41,687 nucleotides of DNA from the IMG/VR virus record IMGVR_UViG_2585427754_000009; one strand, given 5' to 3'. This stretch comes from a virus. Its lineage: Duplodnaviria > Heunggongvirae > Uroviricota > Caudoviricetes. This document shows, one piece after another, positions 4,434 to 10,797 of this stretch. The position numbers were made by a program, and so were the translations under genes. A model generated the notes under the pieces. It searched no databases, was not told where the DNA came from, and worked only from the letters and a program-made list of their open reading frames with translations. Position 1 is the first letter of the stretch, and every line of letters begins with the position of its first letter.

Positions 4434-4868
4434 ATGTCCGGTAATATCTACACGCTGTACAAATCCCACTGTGAAAATGTTGGAAAGTATCGGGGCATTG
4501 AAATCAGTGGGGTAGTGTCATCAGTCGAAATAAGCAAAGTCGAATCAAGGGCAACATTACTTACTCTTCTGGACCTTGTCTTACATGAGCACCGGAAGAA
4601 ATTCGGCACTCCCTATAATCAGTTGAATGGGAAAAAGGCTCTGGTTCACCTTATTCTGATGAAGCATCACTGGATGCCAAAACAGATTAATGAGATGAAA
4701 TTTGATGAACTTCTTCTTTCAATTCAGGATGAACTCACACTTGATAAAATAAGCGTAACCGCCCAGAAATTTTTAGATTATCGAGACTGGAGATCACAAA
4801 TTCATCACTTTGATGATTTTGACGAAAATGAATGGGATCCTAATTTGTCTGCACAATATCTAAAGTAA
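4434..4868 (+). CDS. Hypothetical protein, 144 aa, no family recognised
   Basis: ORF with AAGGAAAAG Shine-Dalgarno-like sequence 5-13 nt upstream of the ATG. Opposite orientation to the surrounding leftward operon. Preceded by two 18-19-bp direct repeats. Confidence 0.5.
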   Translation: MSGNIYTLYKSHCENVGKYRGIEISGVVSSVEISKVESRATLLTLLDLVLHEHRKKFGTPYNQLNGKKALVHLILMKHHWMPKQINEMKFDELLLSIQDELTLDKISVTAQKFLDYRDWRSQIHHFDDFDENEWDPNLSAQYLK

Positions 4869-4983
4869 CATCCTGTGATAAAACCGTGATTTCCTGATCC
4901 AGTTTTTTTAAGGAGTCTATTATTTCCTGTCGATAAGACAGCACTTCACGAAGCTGGTTTATAGCTGCCAGCTTCTTTGCCAT
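4840..4983 (-). CDS. Small ORF (47 aa), possible remnant of a leftward-operon gene
   Basis: In the pre-insertion reading frame a stop lies 2 codons upstream of the IS target site, so only a 47-aa ATG-initiated ORF (MAKKLAAINQLREV...) is possible. Weak RBS. Confidence 0.25.
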   Translation of the reverse strand: MAKKLAAINQLREVLSYRQEIIDSLKKLDQEITVLSQDVTLDIVQTN

Positions 4984-5031
4984 CCACTCGTAAATTTCCT
5001 CATTTGTGTATCCGGGCGCGACGATTTTGGG

Positions 5032-5040
5032 TTCTGTTTT
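5032..5040. repeat. Target-site duplication (TTCTGTTTT), left copy
   Basis: Identical 9-mer at 6097-6105 directly flanks the other IS end. Confidence 0.9.
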
Positions 5041-6096
5041 GGCTTTGTTGAATAAATAAGATTTCGTGCGAACGACCCTGTAGCTGGCTGGATTTTCAGG
5101 CAATACGCACGCTTTCTGGCATCCCAGCCTTTGTCATCCTGTTCAACGCACGCACCATGGCCATAGCTTCCGCTACCTGACCATCGTAGTCACGCAGCGT
5201 CAGTGAATCTCCCAACAACTGCTTCATTCTGTACATTGCCGTTTCCGCTATCGAGCGACGGTTATATTCCGTTGTCCATTTCCACCGTGCATTGCTTCCG
5301 CTCAGCCGCTGATTAGCAACGGCACGGTTGCGGTCTGCGTACTCACCGGGCCAGTAACCTGCTCCTTTTCGGGGAGGAATAAGCGCGCTGATTTTTTTGC
5401 GGCGCAGTTCATCGTGACAGAGCCGGGTATCGTAAGCCCCGTCTGCCGCGGCTGCCCTGATTTTTCTGTGAGTCTGCCGGATAAGGCCCGGGAAGGCTTC
5501 TGAGTCCGTGACGTTATTCAGCGACAGGTCTGCACAGACAACTTCATGTGTGTTGCTGTCAACAGCAAGATGCAACTTTCGCCAGATACGACGGCGCTCT
5601 TTGCCGTGCTTTCTGACTTTCCATTCGCCTTCACCAAAGACCTTCAGCCCGGTGGAATCAATCACCAGGTGTGCGATTTCACCCCGGGTGGACGTTTTGA
5701 AACTGACATTAACCGACTTTGCCCGCTTACTGACACTGGTGTAATCCGGGCAGCGCAACGGAACGTTCATCAGGGCAAAAATGGAATCAATAAAACCCTG
5801 CGCAGCCCGCAGGGTCAGCCGGAATACGCGTTTAATCACCAGAACGGTGGTGATGGCGAGATCAGAATAGCGCTGGGGCCTTCCTCGTGATGAAGGCGTT
5901 GCCGACTCATACCAGGCCTGAATCGCTTCATCATCCAGCCAGAAAGTGAGGGAGCCACGGTTGATGAGAGCTTTGTTGTAGGTGGACCAGTTGGTGATTC
6001 TGAACTTTTGCTTTGCCACGGAATGGTCTGTGTTGTCGGGAGGATGCGTGATCTGATCCTTCAACTCAGCAAAAGTTCGATTTATTCAACAAAGCC
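5041..6096 (-). mobile_element. IS903-like insertion sequence (IS5 family), 1056 bp
   Basis: Terminal inverted repeats GGCTTTGTTGAATAAAT(A/C) at 5041-5058 and 6079-6096 (17 of 18 identical). Single transposase ORF. Flanked by a perfect 9-bp direct repeat. Confidence 0.92.
5096..6064 (-). CDS. IS903-family transposase
   Basis: 322-aa ORF ...QKFRITNWSTYNKALINRGSLTFWLDDEAIQAWY... recognised from memory as IS903/IS102 transposase (DDE). True start may be a few codons inside the ORF. Confidence 0.92.
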   Translation of the reverse strand: MKDQITHPPDNTDHSVAKQKFRITNWSTYNKALINRGSLTFWLDDEAIQAWYESATPSSRGRPQRYSDLAITTVLVIKRVFRLTLRAAQGFIDSIFALMNVPLRCPDYTSVSKRAKSVNVSFKTSTRGEIAHLVIDSTGLKVFGEGEWKVRKHGKERRRIWRKLHLAVDSNTHEVVCADLSLNNVTDSEAFPGLIRQTHRKIRAAAADGAYDTRLCHDELRRKKISALIPPRKGAGYWPGEYADRNRAVANQRLSGSNARWKWTTEYNRRSIAETAMYRMKQLLGDSLTLRDYDGQVAEAMAMVRALNRMTKAGMPESVRIA

Positions 6097-6396: not shown

Positions 6397-6409
6397 ATTG
6401 ATAGGTAAT

Positions 6410-6430
6410 AAAAAGCCACCTTTCGGTGGC
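6410..6430 (-). terminator. Intrinsic terminator downstream of cI
   Basis: GCCACC-TTTC-GGTGGC hairpin (6415-6430); on the minus strand it is followed by a U5 run (A-run 6410-6414 on plus). Lies 20 bp after the cI stop. Confidence 0.6.
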
Positions 6431-6449
6431 CGATGGAAGGATATTGAGG

Positions 6450-7142
6450 TTAATTATGTCTCTTAAGGGTTTGCGACTGACTGATTAAGACCTTTCCAAA
6501 GACCATGAATCGGTGTTCGTTTTCGCTAGTAATTCCCCATTCACGGTAAATCTGGTTATCAGAAATCACCAGCAGTTTGTCAGGAATCATTTGAAGTCTT
6601 TTAACGTATATTTTGTCATCAAAACCAAAGACATATATACCATCACCATCAAACTGATTGATGCTGACATCAACGAAGATGAGATCTCCTGGCTCAATGG
6701 TTGGACACATACTGTCCCCACGAACGTTGATAACTTTGATGTGATTGGCTGGTCGTCCGCCGAACATTGATACAGCATTATCAGTTCTGTATTCGATGGC
6801 ATGAATCACATCAATGACATCACCGCCCTGGATAAGGCCATTTCCCGCACTGGCACTGATATCCAGCATTTCAATACGGAACACATCCTTCACCTGCGCA
6901 ACATCCTCATCATTACTGTTTTTATATACAGTATTACTTTTGTGGGCAGAGGTAAAGAGATCAGCAATATCAACACCTAAGCTCTTGGCAATATTACTCA
7001 GTGTTTGTTCGGTAAATTGTTTTTGCTTACCCGTTTCTAAGCGCGAGATGTTCGCCGCATCTACTCCTATTGCTTCAGCGAGATCGGCGATTTTCATGTT
7101 CTTCGCTTGGCGAAGTTGTCTGACTCGGTTTCCTATGTTCAT
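6450..7142 (-). CDS. cI: CI-type repressor (HTH_XRE + S24 LexA-like peptidase)
   Basis: N-terminal HTH (KIADLAEAIGVDAANISRLETGK), Ala-Gly cleavage site (SASAGNG), catalytic Ser (VRGDSMCPT) and Lys (VKRL). Divergent from cro. Confidence 0.9.
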   Translation of the reverse strand: MNIGNRVRQLRQAKNMKIADLAEAIGVDAANISRLETGKQKQFTEQTLSNIAKSLGVDIADLFTSAHKSNTVYKNSNDEDVAQVKDVFRIEMLDISASAGNGLIQGGDVIDVIHAIEYRTDNAVSMFGGRPANHIKVINVRGDSMCPTIEPGDLIFVDVSINQFDGDGIYVFGFDDKIYVKRLQMIPDKLLVISDNQIYREWGITSENEHRFMVFGKVLISQSQTLKRHN

Positions 7143-7162
7143 GCGTTTATTACATTTCTTTA

Positions 7163-7225
7163 TTGCGTGATAAGCAAATCAACTTGCGCAAAATAATTGC
7201 GTGAAATAACATGCATAACGCGCAA
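7163..7225. promoter_or_regulatory. OR operator region between cI and cro
   Basis: TTGCGTGATAAGCAA (7163-7177), palindrome TTGCGCAA (7184-7191), TTGCGTGA repeat (7197-7204), and a reverse-strand match TTGCGCGTTATGCAT (7211-7225). Sits between divergent cI and cro starts. Confidence 0.55.
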
Positions 7226-7239
7226 TATTTGGAGGGCGT

Positions 7240-7500
7240 ATGCAATCACCATTACGAAATGTGCGTAAGGCGCATGGTTTCACTTTGCAGCATGTTGCTG
7301 CGGGTGTTCAAGTCAATCCAGCGACGTTGAGTCGTATTGAGAGGCTGGAGCAGATTCCATCTATCGAGCTTGCAGAACGTTTAGCCAATTTTTTTAAGGG
7401 TGAAGTCAGCGAAATGCAGATTCTTTATCCGGCACGTTTTCAATCTAGCCAAAACCAGAATGGGTTTAAACCACAGGAACAGGAGGTGAACCGTGGGTAA
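7240..7500 (+). CDS. cro: Cro-like HTH_XRE regulator
   Basis: 86-aa ORF with HTH (FTLQHVAAGVQVNPATLSRIERLE); GGAGGG 4 nt upstream of the ATG; divergent from cI. Confidence 0.85.
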   Translation: MQSPLRNVRKAHGFTLQHVAAGVQVNPATLSRIERLEQIPSIELAERLANFFKGEVSEMQILYPARFQSSQNQNGFKPQEQEVNRG

Positions 7501-8044
7501 GCATCACTGGAAAGTAGAAAAACAGCCTGAGTGGTACGTGAAAGCTGTCAGAAAAACTATCGCAGCGTTGCCGGGGGGGTACGCTGAAGCTGCTGACTGG
7601 CTGGATGTAACAGAGCACGCATTATTTAACCGCCTTCGTGCCGATGGCGATCAGATTTTCCCGCTGGGATGGGCAATGATTTTGCAACGTGCTGGTGGAA
7701 CTCACTTCATTGCTGACGCTGTGGCGCAGTCTGCAAATGGCGTCTTTGTGTCTCTTCCTGATGTCGAGGATGTGGACAACGCCGATATCAACCAACGCCT
7801 GCTGGAAGTCATTGAACAGATCGGCAGTTATTCAAAACAGATTCGTTCAGCAATTGAAGACGGTGTAGTGGAACCGCATGAGAAGACAGCAATTAACGAT
7901 GAGCTGTACCTCTCAATTTCGAAGCTGCAGGAGCATGCAGCTCTGGTCTACAAAATCTTTTGCGTTTCAGAAAGTAGTGACGCCCGCGAGTGTGCAGCTC
8001 CGGGCGCCGTGGCGTGTCGTGACTGTGGAGAAACTAACGCATGA
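7493..8044 (+). CDS. CII-like regulatory protein (CP76 / YdaT-like family)
   Basis: GTG start with AGGAGGTGA RBS. 183-aa product [21 protein letters not shown]... recalled as the phage CII (CP76)/YdaT-like family found after cro-like genes. Confidence 0.6.
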
Positions 8045-8379
8045 ACAGTTTAACAACACACTACCGTCGCTCGCAACTGATTGCGCTTCCTGTACCGGGT
8101 GGAAAAGCGAAGGTGGAGTATTGCTATGCAGTAAATGTACCAGGTGACAGGGAAATTGTAACCCACAGCTTTGCAGAGTGGGCTGTGGGTGATTTCAACC
8201 GGCAGAAGGAGACAGTCCTTTGCGACAAGTTAACCGCTGGTTCAAAGATCACTACGGAGTGCCCGTCAGAGTCATTCGTTGGGAGCCGGAAACACAACGT
8301 GTTATCTACCTCCGCGAAGGCTATGAGCATGAGTGCTTCAGCCCGCTCGAACAGTTTCGTCGTAAATTCAGGGAAATAG
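8041..8379 (+). CDS. Hypothetical protein (112 aa)
   Basis: ATGA start/stop overlap with the upstream gene suggests translational coupling. No family recognised. Confidence 0.45.
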
Positions 8380-8388
8380 AGGTCGGTC

Positions 8389-9330
8389 ATGAGCACTAAA
8401 TTAACCGGCTATGTATGGGATGGTTGCGCTGCATCAGGCATGAAATTATCCAGCGTGGCAATTATGGCCCGCCTGGCTGATTTCAGTAATGACGAAGGTG
8501 TGTGCTGGCCATCAATTGAAACCATTGCCCGCCAGATTGGCGCGGGAATGAGTACCGTCAGAACGGCTATCGCACGGCTGGAAGCAGAAGGCTGGTTAAC
8601 GCGTAAGGCGCGTCGCCAGGGTAACCGCAATGCGTCGAATGTTTATCAGCTTAACGTTGTGAAGCTTCAGGCAGCGGCATTTTCTCAACTGTCAGATTCT
8701 GACCCGTCAAAATCTGACGCATCAAAATCTGACCCGTCAAAATTTGATGCGTCGAAATCTGGCAAAAAAGCGGGTTTTCACCCGTCAGAATCTGGCGGGG
8801 ATCCGTCAGTAAAATCAAAACATGATCCGTCAGATAAAAAAACTTCTCGTCCGGACGCTTCGCAACCGGACACGCAGACGGCTGAACAGGAGTTTTTAAC
8901 TCGCCATCCTGATGCGGTTGTATTCAGCCCTAAAAAGCGCCAGTGGGGAACGCAGGATGATTTGACCTGCGCACAGTGGCTCTGGAAAAAAATCATCGCC
9001 CTGTACGAGCAGGCCGCCGAATGTGACGGCGAGGTGGTTCGTCCCAAAGAACCGAACTGGACAGCCTGGGCAAACGAAATTCGCCTGATGTGTGTGCAGG
9101 ATGGTCGTACTCATAAACAAATCTGCGAGATGTACAGCCGCGTCAGTCGCGATCCGTTCTGGTGCCGTAACGTGCTCAGCCCGTCGAAGCTGCGGGAAAA
9201 ATGGGATGAGCTTTCCCTGCGCTTATCGCCGTCCGTCAGCACGTACACCGAAAAACGCGAAGACCCGTACTTCAAATCCAGTTACGACAACGTGGACTAC
9301 AGCCAGATCCCGGCAGGATTCAGGGGGTGA
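8389..9330 (+). CDS. Replication initiator, lambda O-like (N-terminal winged helix, internal repeat linker)
   Basis: N-terminal wHTH region (SVAIMARLADFSNDEGVCWPSIETIARQIGAGMSTVRTAIARLEAEGWL); pentapeptide repeats SKSDA/SKSDP/SKFDA encoded by 15-bp iterons; AGAGG RBS. Confidence 0.75.
   Translation: MSTKLTGYVWDGCAASGMKLSSVAIMARLADFSNDEGVCWPSIETIARQIGAGMSTVRTAIARLEAEGWLTRKARRQGNRNASNVYQLNVVKLQAAAFSQLSDSDPSKSDASKSDPSKFDASKSGKKAGFHPSESGGDPSVKSKHDPSDKKTSRPDASQPDTQTAEQEFLTRHPDAVVFSPKKRQWGTQDDLTCAQWLWKKIIALYEQAAECDGEVVRPKEPNWTAWANEIRLMCVQDGRTHKQICEMYSRVSRDPFWCRNVLSPSKLREKWDELSLRLSPSVSTYTEKREDPYFKSSYDNVDYSQIPAGFRG
8691..8845. repeat. Iteron array and AT-rich tract (putative origin) inside the initiator gene
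   Basis: Tandem 15-bp units starting 8706, 8721, 8736, 8751 (GTCAAAATCTGAC-like), related copies at 8784 and 8806, then A-rich tract (CAGATAAAAAAAC). Architecture like ori-lambda within O. Confidence 0.6.
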
Positions 9331-9332
9331 TC

Positions 9333-9821
9333 ATGAGTCTTTTGAATGAAGTTCAGAAATTCATTGAAGCCCATCCGGGATGTACTTCCGGAGACATTGC
9401 GGATGCTTTTGCAGGTTACTCACGGCAGCGCGTTCTGCAGTCAGCAAGCAAGTTACGTCAGAGTGGGCGTGTGGCTCACCGTTGTGAAGGAGATACACGC
9501 AGACATTTCCCGCGCCTGACTGAGAGAGCGCAGGAACCGGAACCACAACCAGTTCGAGAAACCAGACCTGTGCGCAATTTCTATGTCGGCACTAACGATC
9601 CCCAGGTGATTTTGTGCCTGACCCGCCAGGCTGAAGAACTGGAGTCCAGGGGCTTATACCGTCGTGCTGCAACCGTGTGGATGGCGGCATTCCGTGAAAG
9701 CCACTCCCAGCCAGAACGAAACAATTTTCTGGCGCGTCGTGAGCGGTGCTTACGGAAAAGCAGCAAGCGCGCTGCATCGGGTGAAGAGTGGTATCTCTCA
9801 GGGAATTACGTGGGGGCTTAA
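9333..9821 (+). CDS. PerC-like transcriptional activator family protein
   Basis: ATG at 9333 with GGGGGTGA RBS. Central LTRQAEELESRGLYRRAATVWMAAF recalled as PerC-family signature. Low certainty. Confidence 0.45.
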   Translation: MSLLNEVQKFIEAHPGCTSGDIADAFAGYSRQRVLQSASKLRQSGRVAHRCEGDTRRHFPRLTERAQEPEPQPVRETRPVRNFYVGTNDPQVILCLTRQAEELESRGLYRRAATVWMAAFRESHSQPERNNFLARRERCLRKSSKRAASGEEWYLSGNYVGA

Positions 9822-10474
9822 TGAGTAATAAATATTGCCAGGCGCTGGCGGAACTGCGGAACAAACCAGCCCATGAACTGAAGGAAGTGGGCGATCAGTG
9901 GCGCACGCCGGACAACATTTTCTGGGGAATTAACACCCTGTTTGGCCCGTTTGTTCTGGATCTGTTCACTGACGGTGATAACGCCAAATGTGCTGCGTAT
10001 TACACGGCGGAAGACAACGCGCTGGCGCATGACTGGTCAGAACGCCTTGCGGAGCTTAAAGGTGCTGCCTTTGGTAATCCCCCATACAGCCGCGCCAGTC
10101 AGCATGAGGGGCAATACATCACCGGCATGCGTTACATCATGAAGCATGCCAGTGCCATGCGTGATAAAGGCGGGCGCTATGTTTTCCTGATCAAAGCTGC
10201 CACCAGCGAAGTGTGGTGGCCGGAAGATGCAGATCATATTGCTTTTATTCGCGGGCGTATTGGTTTTGAACTGCCTGCCTGGTTTATCCCGAAGGATGAG
10301 AAGCAGGTGCCGACAGGCGCTTTCTTCGCTGGTGCTATTGCTGTTTTCGACAAGACCTGGAAGGGACCGGCAATCAGCTACATCGGGCGCGATGAACTTG
10401 AGGCATGTGGTGAGGCCTTTCTGGCGCAGGTTCGCCAGCAGGCAGAAAAACTGGTCAGGGAGATGGCGGCATGA
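9821..10474 (+). CDS. dam: Phage Dam-type N6-adenine DNA methyltransferase
   Basis: TAATG coupling to the upstream gene. NPPY catalytic motif (AAFGNPPYSR). 217 aa; typical phage orphan Dam family. Confidence 0.85.
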   Translation: MSNKYCQALAELRNKPAHELKEVGDQWRTPDNIFWGINTLFGPFVLDLFTDGDNAKCAAYYTAEDNALAHDWSERLAELKGAAFGNPPYSRASQHEGQYITGMRYIMKHASAMRDKGGRYVFLIKAATSEVWWPEDADHIAFIRGRIGFELPAWFIPKDEKQVPTGAFFAGAIAVFDKTWKGPAISYIGRDELEACGEAFLAQVRQQAEKLVREMAA

Positions 10475-10797
10475 CGACGTTAACTCAATGCCAGCAGCAG
10501 GTGCTGGATATGCTGATTTCTTATCAGAAAGAACGTGGCTTCCCGCCAACCAATCAGGAGGTGGCAACCATGCTGGGATACCGTTCAGTGAATGCAGCGG
10601 TGGAGCATCTTCGCGCACTGGAGAAAAAAGGCGTCATCACGATAAAGCGTGGCGTGGCCCGGGGCATCACGCTTCATATCGCGGTGAAGGACGACGACAG
10701 CGAGGCGGTCGGGATTATCCGCTCACTGCTTGCCGGTGAGGAAAACGCAAGGCTGCGTGCAACCCACTGGTTACATGAGAGGGGCCTGAAAGTATGA
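10471..10797 (+). CDS. LexA-N-terminal-like DNA-binding protein (108 aa)
   Basis: ATGA overlap with dam. QQQVLDMLISYQKERGFPPTNQEVATMLGYRSVNAAVEHLRALEKKGVI resembles the LexA DNA-binding domain; no peptidase domain. Confidence 0.6.
   Translation: MTTLTQCQQQVLDMLISYQKERGFPPTNQEVATMLGYRSVNAAVEHLRALEKKGVITIKRGVARGITLHIAVKDDDSEAVGIIRSLLAGEENARLRATHWLHERGLKV

Follow-up and report, generated by a model that had tools for sequence, protein, structure and literature searches.

We analysed a stretch of 41,687 nucleotides from a tailed virus (Caudoviricetes; IMG/VR record IMGVR_UViG_2585427754_000009), referred to below as the window, and found that its replication initiator gene carries within the coding sequence, at positions 8691-8872, an ordered array of iterons followed by an A-rich block. 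This region is almost certainly a cis-acting DNA element under selection at the nucleotide level and, by analogy with phage lambda, it is very probably an origin of replication. No helicase-loader gene was found in the window by the searches described below, and the initiator ends in a 17-residue tail of the type that ends E. coli DnaT. The coordinates of these features are collected in Table 1.

Table 1. Features of the candidate origin, the initiator gene in which it lies and the two genes that follow (positions in the window; pLDDT, predicted local distance difference test)
Feature	Position	Strand	Remarks
Initiator gene, 313 amino acids, mosaic O-like	8389..9330	+	phrog_391 'replication initiation O-like', 3e-135
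N-terminal winged-helix DNA-binding domain, residues 1-98	8389..8682	+	
Iteron array, five 13-bp dyad units (GTCA-N5-TGAC type) at 8691/8706/8721/8736/8751	8691..8763		exact 15-bp period
Spacer with A6 and T4 tracts, AAAAAAGCGGGTTTTCAC	8764..8783		GGTTTT[CG]ACCC kept across class-A loci; Phe TTT 61/61
Proximal (sixth) iteron, GTCAGAATCTGGC	8784..8796		match to dyad unit
Class-independent block, proposed unwinding region	8800..8847		least stable 30/40-mer of the gene; frozen synonymous sites
Parts of the block			GATC box 1, 8800-8809; degenerate unit ATCAAAACATGAT, 8814-8826; GATC box 2, 8824-8833; A7 run, 8837-8843
Conserved right flank, direct repeat CTTCTCGTCCGGAC / CTTCGCAACCGGAC	8843..8872		from repeat search; kept across N-domain classes
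Lambda-O-type helical C-terminal domain, residues 172-278	8902..9222	+	BLASTP to lambda O, 4e-26; pLDDT 86-93 over residues 189-278
DnaT-type C-terminal tail SSYDNVDYSQIPAGFRG, residues 297-313	9277..9327	+	predicted disordered, pLDDT 45-56
PerC-like/YfdN-like gene	9333..9821	+	starts directly after initiator stop; PF06069, 7.8e-9; phrog_1324
Phage Dam-family N6-adenine methyltransferase	9788..10474	+	PF05869, 1.2e-45; TIGR01712, 1.7e-76

Tandem Repeats Finder reported a repeat at 8698-8761 with a period of 15, 4.3 copies and 81% matches (88% when taken as period 30), and 13-bp dyad units of the form RTCR-N5-TGRY start at 8691, 8706, 8721, 8736, 8751, 8784 and 8814. Seven of the 27 matches to this form in the whole window are crowded into one 136-bp stretch inside the initiator gene, and when up to two mismatches to GTCAAAATCTGAC were allowed, the only plus-strand matches in the window were the six at 8691-8796. 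A preliminary description of this DNA, made from the letters alone, had placed four tandem 15-bp iterons and an A-rich tract within the initiator gene at 8691-8845. The repeats and their period were confirmed, with five tandem units and one proximal unit instead of four; the start and the A-rich tract of the element also stood, while the conserved block was found to extend to about 8872. The same description correctly read the repeats as coding for an SKSDx pentapeptide (the units encode LSDSDPSKSDASKSDPSKFDASKSG), the tract that it named is real though modest (8805-8845 has 71% A+T and 49% A, including the A7 run), and its likening of the whole to ori-lambda within O is supported by the order of iterons and A/T-rich stretch in the linker and by the homology of the C-terminal domain to that of lambda O.

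The 40-mer at 8808-8847 is the least stable of the gene and lies within the least stable ~3% of the window. Exact copies of GATCCGTCAG occur in the window only twice, at 8800 and 8824. To the right, the pattern TCTTGTCCGG...CAACC[CG]GAC (also TCTTGTCCGG...CAACCCGAC) is kept across the N-domain classes of the initiator, and the direct repeat at this flank may be part of the origin. In other N-domain classes, the position of the sixth iteron is taken by a class-specific unit instead, such as GGGGTCAATGGTTGACCCC. The element as a whole corresponds to residues 102-161 of the initiator and so lies wholly in the coding region of the linker between the DNA-binding and C-terminal domains, residues 103-166 of which are predicted to be disordered. 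No DnaA box (TTATCCACA, at most one mismatch) was found between 8025 and 11473, and no IHF sites were found in the element.

To compare the element among relatives, we took a single locus for each bacterial species, 80 in all, of which 72 have the standard N-terminus of the gene. The best self-match of the linker DNA was at a shift of 15 nt in 66 of these 72 loci and at 30 nt in six, with a control region giving scattered shifts. The sequence of the unit varies with the class of the N-domain: four classes were seen, with GTCAAAATCTGAC in the class of the window, GGGGTCAA-N3-TTGACCCC in the MSSKLHG class, GTTCA-N5-TGAAC in locus L018 and CTCAC-N3-GTGA in locus L054. Past the last unit, all classes share one block, GATCCGTCAGTAAA..TCAA.....GATCCATCAGATAAAA...TCTTGTCCGG. 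Synonymous positions in this block are frozen across 71 species-level loci: Asp is encoded by GAT (71/71 and 56/56), Ser by TCA (62/62, 58/58 and 50/50) and elsewhere by TCT (60/62), Val by GTA (65/68), Phe by TTT (61/61) and Glu by GAA (56/56). In contrast, 30 codons of the N-domain at which the amino acid is conserved have an average synonymous entropy of 1.37 bits, with GAT and GAC for Asp near 50:50. The density of GATC is 2.14 per 130 nt in the block versus 0.44 in the rest of the gene, and two GATC sites 24 bp apart are kept in nearly all loci (2-3 per origin block), a small cluster with a phage Dam gene nearby. Repeat number ranges from 0 to about 9 among closer protein homologues. Among 80 viral contigs, the array is identical in 58 and has one extra unit in two, and single-base variants fall mostly in or beside the 3-bp spacers between units; the scan that yielded these contigs returned near-identical copies only, and speaks to the stability of the array but not to its diversity.

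Because the synonymous sites are frozen, the 15-bp period is found throughout, the sequence of the unit follows the N-domain class and the block with its GATC sites and A-rich DNA is independent of that class, we conclude that a cis-acting element under nucleotide-level selection is almost certainly present. That its function is to serve as a replication origin is very probable on the strength of the parallel with lambda. We found no description of an origin for the SfII/SfV/e14/mEp460 group in the literature, and the genome papers of SfIV and SfI do not describe one.

The initiator gene has 98% identity to its SfII counterpart, which carries the annotation O family or primosomal protein. Pfam places an HTH_36 winged helix (PF13730) at residues 23-70 of the product and finds no match to Phage_rep_O (PF04492), which lambda O matches at 5.7e-36. 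The C-terminal domain has ~45% identity to lambda O over its core (residues 186-277); no Pfam family and no relative in the PDB were found for it. Since the C-terminal domains of the two proteins are homologous while their N-domains fall in different Pfam families, the initiator is a mosaic, in which a lambda-O-type C-terminal domain is joined to an N-domain of another family, and the C-terminal domain itself is an ordinary one of lambda-O type and not a new loader-like domain.

No helicase, loader or primase was detected in scans of the open reading frames (ORFs) adjoining the initiator with Pfam, PHROGs and NCBIfam, or in a Pfam scan of further early-region ORFs, which covered part of those of at least 75 amino acids. 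With lambda P, E. coli DnaC and DnaB as queries, tblastn likewise gave no match anywhere in the window, and the annotated genome of the viable phage SfII, the one full annotation examined, lists no helicase loader. The preliminary description had held that no P-like or DnaC-like gene follows the initiator and that the next genes are PerC-like and dam; the profile scans and the whole-window tblastn bear out the former, and the Pfam matches in Table 1 the latter. It had also proposed profile searches for a loader domain in an adjacent ORF, where none was detected, and of the C-terminal domain, which led to no Pfam family but, by BLASTP, to lambda O. Its suggestion that host functions are recruited through the C-terminus of the initiator falls short of proof but gained specific support, as no initiator with a DnaT-type tail is accompanied by a phage P gene (see below). 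Judged by gene content, the initiator without a phage helicase, loader or primase makes this an O-only lambdoid replication module, which probably replicates by means of the host helicase and without a phage loader. Modules of this kind have already been catalogued in phage LLS and in 34 of 314 Enterobacterales lambdoid phages, and were called not unique but unstudied (PMC12315714). The kind itself is thus known, and what the origin described here adds is a lambda-type intragenic origin in an O-only module.

We surveyed the C-termini of 78 initiators, from 77 loci and the window. Their C-terminal domains are of lambda-O type or Phg_2220_C (PF09524), and their last 15-70 residues form three tail types that are independent of the C-terminal domain and exchangeable between domains. 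The lambda-like tail (...HWNSPEAWENTL, ...EWNTAQGWEDVL or ...NTDWIDGIENDL, also patterned ...NTDWI.G) is found in eight loci, on both C-domain families, and a lambda-P gene (PF06992) comes next in 8/8. Lambda O itself ends in ...NTDWIYGVDL, and all readable viral contigs linked to lambda P (73/73) have the lambda tail, the scan with P having returned lambda-like O alleles only. Lambda O without its last five residues is inactive (PMC6022878).

The second tail type, ...DYSxIPxGFR[GS], is carried by 49 loci and the window, on the lambda-O-type C-terminal domain and on two Phg_2220_C-like clusters, and a P gene is never next to it; in one of these loci (L072) a DnaC homologue lies directly downstream. 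In profile-profile comparisons (hhalign) of the C-domain families that share this tail, the tail alone aligns (E = 3.6e-8). Gly-Phe-Arg is invariant in 49/49 loci while the codons are free (four for Gly, two for Phe, five for Arg), which indicates constraint on the tail peptide and not on an overlapping ribosome-binding site. The idea that the tail is conserved as a by-product of a Shine-Dalgarno sequence, in which the FRG codons overlap AGGGGG, was rejected, as the codons vary and the downstream genes differ. The third tail type, found in 19 loci without P, is an extension of ~70 residues for which we found no PDB, PHROG or family match. Its pattern is ..ERDxAYxRFI....R.M..F....W..IWKE..QR, often ending in Ala-Ala (listed for loci L013, L015-L021, L036, L051, L053, L059, L062, L066, L069, L073-L075, L078 and L081). 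Locus L070 (3777-4679) stands outside the three types: its initiator retains only IPEGF and ends in ...GGTDDDFI, resembling the C-terminal tail of SSB, and directly downstream (4684-5406) lies a DnaC-like gene, with 45% identity to that of E. coli.

The second tail type is also that of E. coli DnaT. Eight of the nine C-terminal residues are identical (SQIPAGFRG in the initiator, SQIPPGFRG in DnaT), the endings being ...RDVNTVSEPDSQIPPGFRG in DnaT, ...YDNVDYSQIPAGFRG in the window and ...VNHISEPDTEIPPGFRG in some relatives. When the initiator was aligned with DnaT by hhalign, only the tail matched (last 17 residues, E = 1e-4), and the initiator gave no match to PF17948, the three-helix DNA-binding domain of DnaT. 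The tail is kept in 16/16 enterobacterial DnaT homologues examined, including a ...GFRGAK variant that is also present in phage initiators. A DnaT-type C-terminal domain is common to other phage initiator families: Salmonella phage SPN1S combines it with the tail and has no loader gene, and in Aeromonas phage pAEv1818 a similar tailed initiator is followed directly by a DnaC-like loader, in parallel with host dnaT-dnaC. In DnaT, the tail is a flexible segment of ~20 residues of unknown role (PMC5778457, PMC4132743), and a contact between DnaC and DnaT has never been demonstrated (PMC11087952). Ties at the domain level between O-like proteins and DnaT were noted earlier (PMC5509034); we did not find the string PPGFRG in the literature searched.

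We propose that a lambda-type origin lies in the part of a mosaic O-like initiator gene that codes for the disordered linker, and regard the proposal as a whole as evenly balanced between right and wrong. Lambda O binds each iteron as a dimer; after this model, dimers of the winged-helix N-domain would bind the six 13-bp dyad sites (GTCA-N5-TGAC), five of which are phased every 15 bp. The nucleoprotein complex would then stress and open the neighbouring class-independent, GATC-bearing A-rich block at ~8800-8847. No homologue of P, DnaC or DnaB was found in the window by tblastn or among the early-region ORFs scanned with profiles, so the replicative helicase would have to be supplied by the host. 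As the most likely route, the tail ...DYSQIPAGFRG would dock the host DnaB-DnaC complex and replace both the lambda-type tail and P. This docking is a tentative idea to which we give somewhat less than an even chance, and we are more doubtful still of its general form, in which the IPxGFRG tail would be a portable peptide that docks the helicase-loader complex of DnaC type, common to DnaT and to loader-less phage initiators and interchangeable with the P-docking lambda tail. With two GATC sites in the block and a phage Dam gene two genes downstream, the methylation state might also tune firing, the sites perhaps being kept methylated; action of the phage Dam on this pair, and control of firing by it, are speculative.

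Several points weigh against this proposal. Binding, opening, autonomous replication (and with it origin function) and the partner of the tail are steps that we infer. The A-rich block reaches only 71% A+T over 41 bp, and the A/T-rich region of lambda is much stronger. With no DnaA box in or near the element, no help from the host initiator is apparent in the sequence. The lambda-O-type C-terminal domain is kept even where P is absent, and its own role is unexplained. The mutual exclusion of tail and P comes from related loci of one bacterial order, and should be read as roughly 3-6 independent events and not as 57. For DnaT, it is the N-terminal domain and not the tail that has been proposed, in recent structural work, as the likely recruiter of DnaB/DnaC (PMC13377028), and loss of residues 162-179 alters its oligomeric state (PMC5778457).

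Other explanations of the DNA can be set against these observations. If the repeats were merely a disordered SKSDx peptide linker that arose by slippage, without a function as DNA, a low-complexity region that is predicted to be disordered and that has anywhere between 0 and 9 repeats in close homologues would be expected; but synonymous positions would not then be frozen across 71 species-level loci while N-domain codons with conserved amino acids vary freely, nor would the units be dyad-symmetric and follow the class of the DNA-binding domain, nor would the non-repetitive GATC block be kept at the nucleotide level across classes. We consider this explanation largely refuted and its truth exceedingly improbable. 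A DNA function other than initiation, with the units bound by the initiator chiefly for autoregulation, copy control or handcuffing while replication begins elsewhere in the phage, is very unlikely but less so, as the iterons of plasmids serve both initiation and negative control and the A-rich block is only moderately unstable. Against it, the layout is the one seen in ori-lambda, and the initiator has a C-terminal domain homologous to that of lambda O; no DNA of the gene is less stable than the block beside the iterons, which is also under strong nucleotide-level constraint; and no second repeat cluster of such a kind occurs in the window.

Alternatives also exist for the supply of the helicase and for the role of the tail. 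A loader might be provided after all, either as a P-type protein from a co-resident lambdoid prophage, several of which are commonly found in enterobacterial hosts, or as an unrecognised phage protein (the PerC-like protein, YmfM or DUF4222). The C-terminal domain is of the lambda-O type, which in lambda is the half that binds P (PMC6022878), and the PerC-like gene occupies the exact position of P in relatives, just past the initiator stop. The relatives associated with P all bear the lambda-like tail, however, which the initiator of the window does not have; only 19 of the 80 loci have the PerC-like gene next after the initiator, and the product of this gene has no profile similarity to loaders. 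Moreover, isolated viruses that carry this module plate on laboratory strains, which speaks against the need for a helper prophage, and we regard a hidden loader as improbable. More weight, though still well on the unlikely side, goes to a different partner for the tail, which might recruit PriA/PriB, so that the origin fires through the restart primosome, or might drive self-oligomerisation of the initiator on DNA, in place of docking DnaB-DnaC. DnaT works in the PriA-PriB-DnaT preprimosome, where its C-terminal domain docks PriA (PMC13377028); DnaT 1-161 is dimeric and the full-length protein trimeric (PMC5778457); and DnaT without residues 154-179 binds single-stranded DNA with lower cooperativity (PMC4132743). 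Yet the tail is invariant on four unrelated C-terminal domains, as would be expected of a shared external partner more than of self-contacts, and it excludes P, a helicase loader, and is sometimes paired with a phage DnaC gene.

The window represents an SfII/e14-like lambdoid prophage. Over positions 6400-10500, identity is 98% to Shigella phage SfII and 93-98% to many E. coli phages that have been isolated (mEp460, Kati, the PhiR series and Stx2 phages), and viable isolated phages with the same replication module include SfII, SfIV, mEp460, Kati and the PhiR series. The gene order agrees with the SfII annotation: a cI-like repressor (6450-7142, minus strand), cro-like, YmfL/CII-like, YmfM and DUF4222 genes precede the 313-residue replication gene, and PerC-like, phage Dam, LexA DNA-binding-domain protein, RusA, KilA-N protein, DUF968/HNH and Q-like antiterminator genes follow it. 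Gene families containing a methyltransferase (Dam, MT-A70- or ParB-linked) lie one or two genes past the initiator in most related loci (L002-L081), the profile check having been made on single representatives.

Further observations concern individual genes. The product of the PerC-like/YfdN-like gene (9327/9333-9821, plus strand), which occupies the P position of relatives, has a winged-helix-like N-terminal part and a PerC domain; a relationship to lambda ren was considered and rejected, as no similarity was found. The 108-residue protein encoded at 10471-10797 (plus strand) consists of a LexA DNA-binding domain alone, without the peptidase domain, and is kept near the replication gene in many related loci. 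Two ORFs in different frames share 160 nt, a YmfM-like one (8041-8379, plus strand; phrog_1170, full length) and a DUF4222 one (8220-8399, plus strand; Pfam, 8.6e-19); either one of the two may be a spurious call, or a frameshift may link them. An IS5-type transposase-like ORF of 322 residues, identified by eye, lies at 5096-6064 (minus strand) between the early-left genes and the cI-like repressor, and the Q-type antiterminator (PF03589; 12996-13775, plus strand) has a match to the DnaJ-type CXXCXGXG zinc finger.

An origin is in itself expected in a lambdoid replication gene. The module belongs to the O-only lambdoid replicons, described as 'not yet understood' in a 2025 survey (PMC12315714), and the SfII/SfV/e14/mEp460 group includes Stx2-converting and serotype-converting phages. 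The comparative data point to the 17-residue tail as a switch between bringing a loader of the phage's own (P) and using the host, and the same tail ends E. coli DnaT, whose recruitment of DnaB-DnaC is an acknowledged open question. If the proposed docking were true, O-only lambdoid phages would fire their origins by imitating DnaT, the tail peptide would be the missing link in recruitment of DnaB-DnaC by the PriA-PriB-DnaT preprimosome, and dnaT-dnaC would resemble an initiator-loader pair domesticated from a phage. Coming from a correlation in one bacterial order, the finding on the tail amounts to a hypothesis that can be tested and is of wider interest. The frozen synonymous sites offer a clean case of a cis-acting element within coding sequence, and a practical caution against recoding the initiator gene.

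Among known systems, lambda ori/O/P is the closest counterpart. In both, the known or proposed origin is contained in the initiator gene, where the linker that joins the DNA-binding domain to the C-terminal domain is encoded, with the annotated lambda iterons at the equivalent place; an A/T-rich stretch comes after dyad-symmetric iterons; the C-terminal domains are homologous; and the extreme C-terminus is functionally critical in lambda O (PMC6022878). The window differs in its HTH_36 N-domain in place of PF04492, in 13-bp units at a strict 15-bp period where the lambda record has four 18-bp iterons with starts spaced 20-24 bp apart, in the conserved GATC pairs of its unwinding block, in the absence of a P gene (PF06992; by Pfam, PHROGs and tblastn) and in a tail of DnaT type and not of the type ending lambda O. 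Iteron plasmids such as pSC101, R6K, P1 and RK2 also combine a winged-helix initiator with tandem repeats beside an A/T-rich element, and they rely on host DnaB-DnaC. In these plasmids the iterons lie between genes as direct repeats of ~17-22 bp, mostly accompanied by DnaA boxes, whereas those of the window are coding, dyad-symmetric and phased every 15 bp, with no DnaA box.

The O-only modules exemplified by LLS share the single O-like gene with no helicase or loader, but the survey that describes them gives neither the anatomy of an origin nor a mechanism (PMC12315714). The initiators of SPN1S and of epsilon15/phiV10-like phages (PHROGs 1408, 2509, 1032 and 6451) are likewise modular and end in the DnaT tail; their C-terminal domain is of DnaT type versus the lambda-O type of the window, and the N-domain of SPN1S is also different. 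In the domesticated DopC/DopE pair, DopC has HTH_36 together with the DnaT C-terminal motif, but is paired with the P-like DopE and has no iterons (PMC5509034). E. coli DnaT itself ends its flexible tail with the motif ...[ST][EQ]PDxxIPxGFRG, and the pairing of a tailed initiator with a dnaC-like gene in some phages resembles the host, where dnaT adjoins dnaC. Unlike the initiator, DnaT has no sequence-specific DNA-binding domain, its C-terminal domain (PF17948) shows no detectable relationship to the lambda-O type, the tails alone aligning, and it acts at forks with PriA/PriB and not at an origin.

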